From Candidatus Undinarchaeota archaeon (GTDB lineage: Archaea; SpSt-1190), in the NCBI GenBank assembly GCA_964449215.1, contig CAYVAH010000004.1, positions 1 through 46,772 of the forward strand: a stretch of 46,772 nucleotides of DNA, read 5' to 3'. The notes under the pieces are model-generated. The model was given only the letters and a program-made list of their open reading frames with translations. It was not told the origin of the DNA and made no database searches. Shown here piece by piece: positions 1 to 1,858 of the stretch. Every line of letters starts with the position of its first letter. The stretch's first letter is position 1. The translations under genes and the position numbers were made by a program.

Positions 1-757
1 CCTGAAATACCAGGACACAAGTTACAACATCTACGTTGCTGCCAACGGGGACGACTACAACATCTCGTTGAAGGACGGTACCTTCGACGTGATAACCATA
101 ACGCCCCACGATGCTGCAACCGGTTTTGACCATCTTGGATCCAAGGACAACGATGCTGAAGCTGATGAGCTTAAGATTGGTACTGAGAGTGTGGGAACGG
201 CCAAGACGGACATCTTGACGCACTACGGAACAATCATTGGAAACCCGAACAGCAACGGCGACAGCGACAAGGTTGTCTTGGAGGTTCCGGATGAGCAGGT
301 CAAGGTCTATGTGTACCTTGGTGCACCTGGAATGACCACGACGACCGGCGAAGTGTCCTACACATACAGCGGCTTGAACGCTGAAGTCGCGGTGCTCGAC
401 AGCGAGGCCGACACGAGCGGGTCAACCCCGTTGGTGATAGTTGGTGGTCCGTACGCCAACGCCCTTGCGGCCAGCCTGATCGGGAGTGACGACGCGACGA
501 TAAAGGACTACTTCGGCTACGACGAAACCACCGGTGCAGGAAAGGGTATCGTGAAGCTTTACGACGCTTCAGCCACACCCTGGAATGTGGAAGCCATGGT
601 GGTCGCCGGTTGGGCTGCCAAGGACACTAGGGCTGCTGCCTACATACTCGGTCAGTACTTGACCGGTGTGAAGGACCTGAGCGCTCTGGATGGTAAGAGC
701 AGCATAACCGTGACTGCTATGAGTGCGACCAGCATAAGCAGCGAAGAGATTGCGTAA
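1..757 (+). CDS. S-layer protein, C-terminal part (5' end outside window)
   Basis: Open frame from the window edge. C-terminal motifs VAVLDSE, LVIVGGPYAN and MVVAGWAAKDTRAAA resemble the euryarchaeal S_layer_C domain; acidic and Thr-rich. Confidence 0.8.
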   Translation, partial: LKYQDTSYNIYVAANGDDYNISLKDGTFDVITITPHDAATGFDHLGSKDNDAEADELKIGTESVGTAKTDILTHYGTIIGNPNSNGDSDKVVLEVPDEQVKVYVYLGAPGMTTTTGEVSYTYSGLNAEVAVLDSEADTSGSTPLVIVGGPYANALAASLIGSDDATIKDYFGYDETTGAGKGIVKLYDASATPWNVEAMVVAGWAAKDTRAAAYILGQYLTGVKDLSALDGKSSITVTAMSATSISSEEIA

Positions 758-765
758 AAACGCAC

Positions 766-785
766 CTTCTTTTTTCTTTTATTTT
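766..785 (+). terminator. Oligo-T archaeal intrinsic terminator after the S-layer gene
   Basis: CTTCTTTTTTCTTTTATTTT shortly after the TAA at 757, between convergent genes. Confidence 0.55.
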
Positions 786-1420
786 CAAATTCTGGCTTTC
801 TTGTCTCCGTGTGATACGAAGCAATTCATGTCCCACCAGATATACCTGGCAAATGGCGCATGTTCTTCGTTTCCCAGTGCCTTTATCAGATTCTTCCTGA
901 ACTGTCCCACTGTTTTTTCGTGGGCATTCTCAACATTATTCCCTTTTATTAAGGACTCCACGAACCGTATTGATGGACCGAGAAACAGCTCTGCTGTTGC
1001 ATCCGATAGGGGTCTGGTGAGTCTCGACGGGTCAAAAACGAACACAAAGTCCTCAGAATATCCTGTAAAGCTAAGGGCTCCATTTTTCACAGCGTTCGGG
1101 CCTAGTTCTTTCGCGGACTTGCAGGATATTGCATAAACTATTTTTGAGTGCAGTATCTTTTCATTTTTTCCTGCTGTTATGAGCGGTTTGTCGTTATGTC
1201 CCCTTACTGTTCTACTGTCTCCATGCCCATTGAGAACTATGAGATTTGGGGAGAATTCCTTTATCATTCCCTCAAGCTCTTCTCTTGTCGCGCGTTCTCT
1301 GGGGAGGTCAATTACCCTAATCCTCCGGCTTTTGGCGATTTTGAGGGTACCTTCACTCCATTTCGACAGGTAATATGTTGTGTCATCATGTTCAGGCCTT
1401 GTTACAAGGTATGTTGCCAT
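785..1420 (-). CDS. Putative caspase-hemoglobinase-fold (CHAT/C25-like) cysteine peptidase, stand-alone, 211 aa
   Basis: LIVLNGHG (strand plus His-Gly), IVYAISCKSA (strand plus Cys), then GALSFTGY; order and spacing fit clan CD proteases. Confidence 0.6.
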   Translation of the reverse strand: MATYLVTRPEHDDTTYYLSKWSEGTLKIAKSRRIRVIDLPRERATREELEGMIKEFSPNLIVLNGHGDSRTVRGHNDKPLITAGKNEKILHSKIVYAISCKSAKELGPNAVKNGALSFTGYSEDFVFVFDPSRLTRPLSDATAELFLGPSIRFVESLIKGNNVENAHEKTVGQFRKNLIKALGNEEHAPFARYIWWDMNCFVSHGDKKARI

Positions 1421-1626
1421 AGGGTACCCCCTTTCTTCAGCGCTCTCAGAAACTCCAGCTCTATTTCAACAATCTTCTTCCCTATCTTGTCTCCACCTTT
1501 GACATGTTTTATCAGCTCATCCCTGCTGAAGCTCCCGTGTCCCCCGATTGACATTTTTTTGTCCGGGGGTAGTGCTTTCAGCCTGACAATGACGAGCTCC
1601 TTGAGTTCATTGGGTACCTCACTCAT
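1402..1626 (-). CDS. Small hypothetical protein (74 aa), middle gene of the three-gene cassette
   Basis: ATGA overlap with the upstream gene, 19-nt overlap with the downstream peptidase gene; protein-like helical composition. Confidence 0.7.
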   Translation of the reverse strand: MSEVPNELKELVIVRLKALPPDKKMSIGGHGSFSRDELIKHVKGGDKIGKKIVEIELEFLRALKKGGTLWQHTL

Positions 1627-1805
1627 ATTATCCCCAACTTTTCGAGTTTTTTTAAGATTTCTTCTCCCTTTGTTGTTTCATTATAAACCTCAACGTATGC
1701 GGCGTTCCAGGTTAGGGGCTTTCCATCCAGAACCACTATTATTTCCTTTCGCAGGTTGAGTGGGAGGTCGGAATATATCTTGATGAATCTCTCCTTTAGT
1801 CCCAC
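1623..1805 (-). CDS. Small hypothetical protein (60 aa), first gene of the three-gene cassette
   Basis: Protein-like composition; its TGA overlaps the next ATG (ATGA). Confidence 0.7.
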   Translation of the reverse strand: MGLKERFIKIYSDLPLNLRKEIIVVLDGKPLTWNAAYVEVYNETTKGEEILKKLEKLGII

Positions 1806-1844
1806 ATAGGTATTTGTCAGATAGCTATAAATGTGTTTTCTAAA

Positions 1845-1858
1845 GCAAAACTTTTAAA
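1845..1858 (+). promoter_or_regulatory. BRE/TATA box of rpl10e (probably a leaderless transcript)
   Basis: GCAAAAC followed by TTTTAAA (1852-1858), starting 28 nt before the ATG at 1880. Confidence 0.55.

Follow-up and report, generated by a model that had tools for sequence, protein, structure and literature searches.

A three-gene cassette of a predicted stand-alone clan CD protease and two small partner proteins, found mostly in DPANN archaea and CPR bacteria

We describe a cassette of three co-oriented, overlapping genes (A, B and C, encoding proteins of 60, 74 and 211 aa) that combines a predicted stand-alone cysteine protease of clan CD with two small partner proteins and recurs, in the same gene order, mostly in DPANN archaea and CPR bacteria. 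The trio is apparently undescribed and comprises a new protease family and two new partner families, within the known protease-plus-partner conflict modules. Judged by analogy, it most likely works like the PCaspase/PCi pair or a type II toxin-antitoxin pair. The reading that we favour, although at somewhat less than even confidence, is that C is a toxic protease kept in check by A and B, i.e., an undescribed toxin-antitoxin-like switch.

The cassette lies in a stretch of 46,772 nucleotides from a Candidatus Undinarchaeota archaeon (contig CAYVAH010000004.1; henceforth the window). The original prediction, made from the DNA letters, had placed the three genes between the terminator of an S-layer gene and rpl10e without stating their strand; they are indeed there, on the minus strand. 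The features discussed below are as follows:

1623..1805, minus strand: gene A, 60 aa, starting with GTG; likely regulates the protease or acts as its partner.
1402..1626, minus strand: gene B, 74 aa; may be a distant paralogue of A and is predicted to bind the protease C-terminal helix.
785..1420, minus strand: gene C, 211 aa; predicted stand-alone clan CD (caspase/CHAT/gingipain-fold) cysteine protease.
1223..1225, minus strand: codon of His66 (NGHG), predicted catalytic histidine from conservation and from its place in the model after strand 60-64.
1121..1123, minus strand: codon of Cys100 (AISC), predicted nucleophile from conservation and from its place in the model after strand 94-98.
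1826..1831, minus strand: TTTATA, likely archaeal TATA box, which stands 20 nt ahead of the GTG start codon of A (read by eye).
751..784, plus strand: hairpin and T-tract terminator of the S-layer gene (hairpin listed at 751-764); left insertion boundary.
1852..1858, plus strand: TTTTAAA, likely TATA box of rpl10e; right insertion boundary, outside the cassette.

The cassette is convergent with the S-layer gene (which ends at 757) and divergent from rpl10e (which starts at 1880). Both gene overlaps had been predicted to the nucleotide: A and B share 4 nt (ATGA, 1623-1626), while B and C share 19 nt (1402-1420). Read by eye, the TTTATA box ahead of gene A implies that the cassette has its own, nearly leaderless promoter, and G-rich runs resembling ribosome-binding sites precede B and C. 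Across the 80 genome loci described below, we likewise saw by eye purine-rich and TATA boxes about 25 nt upstream of A in many archaeal copies, whereas many CPR copies had TATAAT-like boxes near the start; promoter type at the trio thus seems to track host domain, with mostly nearly leaderless starts.

With respect to composition, the cassette has a GC content of 45.1% compared to 52.5% for the whole 788-kb genome, a value that is low but not extreme (equally low values occur in 42 out of 1499 equal-sized genome windows). The GC counts that had been used to call it a low-GC cassette (22/60 at 1141-1200 and 19/60 at 1621-1680, versus 42/60 at 2161-2220) were exact, but the two low windows fall below the cassette mean. 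GC at third codon positions ranges from 45% to 57% in the cassette versus 65-75% in four neighbouring genes, and cassette GC was below that of its flanks in 49 out of 65 loci. The arrangement is also not an assembly chimera, given that contigs from run X3 (a run not marked as a possible source of the window DNA) bridge both junctions, one spanning the S-layer/protease junction (268-1039) and a second the small-gene/rpl10e junction (1460-2369). Downstream of rpl10e lies an unannotated 133-aa ORF (2455-2856) with a C-terminus that looks winged-helix-like by eye; it follows rpl10e in all 9 relatives from the same family, at 57-72% identity.

To characterise C we modelled its structure with AF2, using 120 homologues as input, and obtained a model with pLDDT 97.4 and pTM 0.92. 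The original prediction had proposed a clan CD protease based on the NGHG, AISC and GALSFTGY motifs; all three are present in the protein, and the structural comparisons agree with the proposed fold. Specifically, the top Foldseek matches were SAVED-CHAT (E 5.6e-7), caspase-4, TPR-CHAT, clostripain-type C11 and gingipain, while VIA realignment to SAVED-CHAT (8tl0) yielded Z 17.3 and rmsd 2.3 over 173 aligned residues at 16% identity. Scores were similar for gingipain RgpB (4ief; Z 17.2, with gingipain entries at Z 17.2-14.4 across the whole of C), followed by legumain (Z 14.0) and separase (Z 13.9). The SAVED-CHAT, RgpB, legumain and separase alignments each cover residues 1-211, meaning that C is a single bare clan CD domain. 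All of the 50 VIA rows for C were SAVED-CHAT, gingipain, legumain-type or separase entries, except for two of DdvA (an anti-sigma factor) and one of GPI transamidase.

The putative catalytic dyad is strongly conserved. Among 151 divergent sequences (the window C plus its best 150 representatives), His66 and Gly67 were each found in 151 and Cys100 in 150; among 120 close sequences, the histidine was found in 119 and the cysteine in all. In the model, His-Gly follows one strand (60-64) and Cys a later one (94-98), which is the order typical of clan CD. The SAVED-CHAT dyad (H375/C422) falls within the range aligned to C (305-513), which would be compatible with superposed dyads. We thus predict, from modelled fold and dyad conservation together, that C is a member of clan CD.

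By sequence, C appears as a separate family inside clan CD, and not as CHAT, C25 or C14. The window protein had no Pfam match to CHAT (PF12770), C25 (PF01364) or C14 at E<=1; within the family, C25 (best E 7e-7) and CHAT (best E 0.0098) were each hit by 1 out of 132 members, and C14 was absent from the family matches listed. The family comprises 1261 clusters at 50% identity (E<=0.001, a count that takes in more distant relatives), and none of its best 150 representatives is longer than 246 aa. About 8000 longer candidates were scored without finding a fused or longer C, which is weak evidence that such forms are absent; a separate search for B fusions, likewise of about 8000 candidates, gave one longer B-containing protein that looks like an assembly chimera. 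For the window proteins A, B and C, Pfam returned only sub-threshold DUF matches and NCBIfam, PADLOC and PHROGs none, and PDB sequence searches with the protein and two profiles found nothing significant. Clusters in the ESM Atlas that resemble C at TM 0.9 (among them a 235-aa, mostly viral one, a 375-aa one from Bacteroidota and a 452-aa one with carboxypeptidase-regulatory-like domains) are unnamed and form a wider unnamed branch of clan CD. In two loci, L106 and L107, C belongs to a divergent subfamily whose N-terminus is rich in Cys; their A protein has a weak match to the B profile (E 0.005 in L106), and in L107 a Pro replaces the catalytic His, possibly through a sequencing error.

None of the three families contains a 19-residue hydrophobic stretch above 1.61 on the Kyte-Doolittle scale (70 members each), and A, B and C accordingly lack a membrane segment. 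Neither does C seem to have a signal peptide, as judged from its hydrophobicity and N-terminus and not with a dedicated predictor. Together with the single domain over residues 1-211, this agrees with the earlier claim that C has neither signal peptide nor sensor domain, and we predict it to be a cytoplasmic protease.

The small proteins have no Pfam or NCBIfam match at cut-off. The AF2 model of A (pLDDT 93.5) has a helix-helix-beta-hairpin-helix-helix arrangement that matched no solved fold above background (Foldseek best E 0.9; VIA wide best Z 4.0), which is no proof of a new fold; the Atlas model of B, above the naming bar, matched only unnamed clusters. Among 70 members of each family, residues F7, P15, R19 and W33 are invariant in A, while in B G49 is invariant and a SIG motif is kept in at least 90%. 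We found a weak, colinear match between the A and B profiles (P=0.0018; score 19.5 versus a shuffle maximum of 18.2, exceeding 59 out of 59 column shuffles), suggesting that A and B may be old paralogues.

We then asked how often the three genes occur together. The original prediction had mentioned similar unannotated trios in CPR and DPANN genomes, and this was borne out: in the best 80 of 90 genome loci, which were found by C alone, A and B lay directly upstream of C in the same order in 78, the remaining two being contigs cut at their ends. In the best 80 of 296 metagenome loci the trio was intact in 71, truncated by the contig start in 8 and decayed in 1, with the A-B-C order kept in 74 out of 74. 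A and B overlapped by 4 nt in 32 out of 70 loci, and B and C by 4 or 8 nt in 39 out of 70. There was no conserved fourth gene: the next commonest family occurred in 6 of the 80 genome loci and none in more, ruling out a larger conserved operon. Most record titles for these loci named Woesearchaeota/Nanoarchaeia, Aenigmatarchaeota, Micrarchaeota or CPR bacteria, and a few named Omnitrophota and others. One genome (L062, L063) carries two near-identical trios, each on its own contig and close to AAA_14/DUF4143 ATPase genes.

A, B and C all evolve under purifying selection, with dN/dS ratios of 0.07 for A and of 0.07 and 0.11 for the other two (7 close pairs), and the mean identity of the three proteins across domains is 44-52%. 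Their evolutionary distances are correlated (Mantel rho 0.27-0.47, permutation maxima at most 0.20), as expected of any linked block.

The distribution of the trio is patchy. In even samples that include the centre genome, C was found in 14 out of 251 genomes of an archaeal class and in 8 out of 301 of a CPR phylum (one weak C match, G480 with E 4.7e-4, was left out of the count), and it was found in 2 out of 17 genomes of the window's phylum. B adjoined every clear C match in the even samples (14/14 archaeal, 8/8 CPR), leaving out three weak B matches inside unrelated long ORFs.

The window site itself supports the earlier suggestion of horizontal acquisition. C was found in none of the 9 family relatives. 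Seven of these have the S-layer gene directly next to rpl10e, and the remaining two have other genes upstream, indicating that the cassette is an insertion at the window site. The empty sites span 87-157 bp in six relatives and keep the hairpin/T-tract after the S-layer stop, and in all 7 a TTTTAAA-like box stands at a comparable distance before the rpl10e ATG; the insert is thus positioned after the S-layer terminator and before the rpl10e promoter. Identity of the window C is 53-57% with its best matches from Woesearchaeota/Nanoarchaeia and Aenigmatarchaeota but 32% with the second copy found in its phylum, and in a quick tree (without a clade test, and from which we claim no donor) it nests in a starred archaeal group. 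Taken together, these sequence comparisons support acquisition of the cassette by horizontal transfer.

As for the mode of transfer, the window site has no terminal repeats and no target duplication, which rejects a transposon-like element there, and a tRNA within 500 bp was found in just 8 out of 79 loci, which rejects tRNA-targeted integration as the general route. The second copy from the window's phylum (L082, G005:C15:83720-87334) has tRNA genes at a distance of about 1 kb on either side and adjoins an ORF that looks transposase-like by eye; its 32% identity and its context suggest a separate acquisition. The joined empty-site form was not seen in four vent runs, in which cover was low and patchy.

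A close relative of C was found neither in IMG/VR (three pattern scans) nor in plasmids, and 50,697 phage records contained one distant C match and none for B. Atlas clusters with many viral members do match C by structure, so viral relatives have probably been sampled too thinly. The distant match, in Caudoviricetes sp. vir519 (L093:7669-8612; host Methanofastidiosa), is 23% identical to C, keeps His and Cys, ends in a C-terminal hydrophobic stretch and is overlapped by a single 66-aa gene that weakly matches both the A and B profiles (E 0.0026 and 0.0001; five-sequence test). It may represent a two-gene, membrane-anchored version of the system, and this one example suggests that the core is a small domain plus the protease. 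One alternative reading is that C is an effector delivered into the symbionts' host cell, with A and B as chaperones or immunity proteins; DPANN and CPR are episymbiont lineages, and the hydrophobic stretch of the viral version would fit. We consider this very improbable, as the cellular family has no signal or membrane segment, no secretion genes are conserved nearby and the trio is present patchily.

A further alternative is a regulatory module unrelated to defence, in which C would carry out controlled proteolysis, for example in stress, dormancy or host attachment of the symbiont, and A and B would be adaptors or regulators. Strong conservation, a host range almost entirely within DPANN and CPR, and the many copies amid housekeeping genes all agree with such a role. 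We nevertheless hold it to be quite unlikely, as presence in 14/251, 8/301 and 2/17 genomes, at ever-different and often decaying sites, is the pattern of a selfish or defence element and not of a core regulator.

The original prediction had also called for a survey of defence genes around the trio. The enrichment near the trio was modest: defence, toxin-antitoxin or mobile genes made up 18 out of 72 annotated nearest neighbours versus 5 out of 43 annotated genes at least 3 kb away (Fisher p=0.096 among annotated genes, 0.073 among all; 144 nearest and 99 distant genes scanned, 72 and 43 of them Pfam-annotated, categories sorted by hand). Individual copies adjoin integrases, restriction genes, ParE, Fic or Phd, and many, including that of the window, sit among housekeeping genes. 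In L016 (488-3106) the trio lies between cas1 and cas4, on the opposite strand. The window A, B and C matched 0 families in PADLOC (2023 library), and at most 1 out of 132 C homologues matched any one PADLOC model at E<=0.01. This context is suggestive only, and a defence role is plausible but weakly supported.

To assess how A and B might relate to the activity of C, we examined decay of the trio in 101 distinct loci, counted after removing 5 repeats from 106 rows. In five of them (L070, L079, L103, L147, L148) C was broken while A and B were intact, and the converse, an intact C with A or B broken or missing away from a contig end, was seen in none of the 101. As C accounts for 636 out of 1044 coding bases, a 5:0 polarity would be expected by length alone with a probability of about 0.61^5, or about 0.08, and is not significant; some of the breaks may also be assembly errors. 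In the other decayed loci, A stood alone (L140), B was intact beside remnants of A and C (L112), A and C were both broken (L036), or all three genes were broken (L119). The same decay (an A deletion and a C frameshift) was seen in two assemblies, L036 and L230, which probably represent one organism.

Covariation across 134 non-redundant triples (Neff 93) pointed in the same direction. The strongest signal linked B-E56 with C-R192 (z 8.2 versus a maximum of 6.5 in 6 neighbour-swap controls), with E56 paired with Arg or Lys at position 192 in 86 of the 134 triples; Arg192 lies on the last helix of C, beside the conserved Leu194 and Trp196. A-Thr45 and C-Glu185 also covaried (z 7.8 versus control 6.9), nothing between A and B exceeded controls, and the 6 B-C pairs that scored z>5 were within the control range of 3-12. 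Decay polarity and the B-C pair are thus a hint from sequence in favour of a toxic protease restrained by an inhibitor.

A switch of this kind could operate as follows. The overlapping genes would be co-translated, yielding near-stoichiometric A, B and C; B, with A as a related partner, would dock on C and hold the protease off. If A and B were lost, degraded or titrated (e.g., when a virus shuts down host expression), C would be freed and would cleave cellular proteins, leading to growth stop or cell death, and the module would persist as a toxin-antitoxin-like addiction or abortive-infection cassette. An antitoxin doubling as sensor would account for the missing sensor domain in C. There are precedents for the separate elements: in the accessible text of 10.1101/2023.06.23.546230, PCi is a small co-encoded inhibitor of PCaspase, a prokaryotic caspase-like protease of broad specificity, and in that of PMC12642450 a caspase without an effector gives phage resistance. 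Against such a switch speak the conservation of all three proteins across domains, which is unlike that of fast-evolving arms-race sensors, the weak enrichment of defence neighbours, the scarcity of nearby tRNAs, and a second C-like gene in L008 without its own A or B directly ahead. This gene (L008:137-781) is divergent, keeps His and Cys, and has a full trio 0.7 kb downstream. A broader formulation, that the trio defines a new three-component toxin-antitoxin or abortive-infection class (a bare caspase-fold toxin with two related new-fold mini-proteins as antitoxin/sensor, shared by symbiotic DPANN and CPR, and with an archaeal virus carrying a membrane-anchored cousin that has a single partner), we find possible but doubtful.

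The same data bear on two other readings. In one, A and/or B are latent effectors or substrates activated by site-specific cleavage by C, as in EACC1-caspase and Pepco-protease modules, whose layout, with one or more small genes immediately ahead of a caspase-like gene (PMC12642450), is that of the trio; loss of C with A and B intact would be harmless here as well. Several lines of evidence make it unlikely: A and B have no transmembrane stretch, as opposed to EACC1, which has a TM helix (PMC7159879), and to Pepco, which forms a beta-barrel; neither matches Pfam; and proteins of 60-74 aa, with a compact predicted fold in A, leave scant room for a pro-domain plus a toxin. In the known modules the proteases are also fused to sensors, and the 8000 candidates yielded no fused C (again weak evidence), while loss of A or B beside an intact C should have been tolerated and none was seen.

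In the other, A and B are a sensor or activator that recognises a foreign protein or oligomerises, and so switches on C against host or viral targets. Since C has no sensor domain its input must come via a partner, oligomerisation switches on CHAT proteases (according to the accessible text of 10.1101/2023.06.23.546230), and the B-C contact hint fits equally well. Yet a C that is harmless without A and B should be found to have lost them, which was seen in 0 of 101 loci, and A and B are conserved at least as well as C, which is unusual for sensors of foreign proteins; we thus regard an activating role as improbable.

Returning to the restrained toxic protease, the trio can be compared with several known systems. 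In type II toxin-antitoxin systems, small gene(s) lie upstream of and overlap a larger gene, with their own promoter and a patchy, mobile distribution. The trio is alike in its coupled small upstream genes, its own likely promoter, its patchiness and mobility, and a downstream gene that is seemingly lost first, but it has three genes, its putative toxin is a clan CD protease and it matches no toxin-antitoxin family. Gingipains are secreted proteases. Their R/K catalytic domain (family C25; 4ief, 1cvr, 4rbm) resembles the whole of C at 8-12% identity, whereas C corresponds to the catalytic subdomain only, without signal peptide, prodomain or Ig/adhesin domains. The best structural match, SAVED-CHAT of the Haliangium type III-B CRISPR locus with its PCaspase and PCi (8tl0; 10.1101/2023.06.23.546230), shares the His/Cys dyad with C, but the trio lacks a SAVED or other sensor, any CRISPR/CBASS link, and the second protease, the sigma factor and the kinase. 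PCi is moreover described as CI-2-like in the accessible text of that study, while A is predicted to be mostly helical and has no fold match.

The EACC1-caspase, Pepco-protease and alpha/beta-hydrolase-caspase modules (PMC12642450; PMC7159879) resemble the trio in having a small or separate upstream gene and in their horizontal spread. According to the accessible parts of these sources, their proteases are mostly sensor-fused and the partners are membrane pore-formers or enzymes; the trio instead combines a bare protease with two soluble partners of about 60-75 aa from different families. Assignment of the trio as an EACC1, Pepco, MBL or hydrolase module was rejected; compared with EACC1 and Pepco modules, it showed no partner match in Pfam or NCBIfam, no TM-like segment and no sensor fusion. 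Borvo, with its CHAT protease BovA (PADLOC), likewise has a CHAT-like protease, and 1 out of 132 C members touches two BovA models (E about 0.001-0.002), but PADLOC has no model that the window proteins match, and nothing resembling a Borvo partner is conserved nearby. A literature search, with subscription journals and supplements outside its coverage, found no description of the trio; the families might stand unnamed in the protein-family tables of PMC8204110 or PMC7159879.

Most of the prokaryotic caspase-like immune proteases described so far are activated through a fused sensor or by a second messenger. C has neither, while its partners and catalytic residues are kept across domains, suggesting that its control logic is likely to be different. 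The C family is large and unnamed, and occurs in lineages with little-known immunity and cell-death biology, and the whole system takes up 1 kb. If A and B are inhibitors, they would constitute a new small scaffold or a new inhibitor family acting against clan CD proteases; if the toxin-antitoxin or abortive-infection reading is true, the trio would rank as roughly the smallest known death switch of the caspase type.
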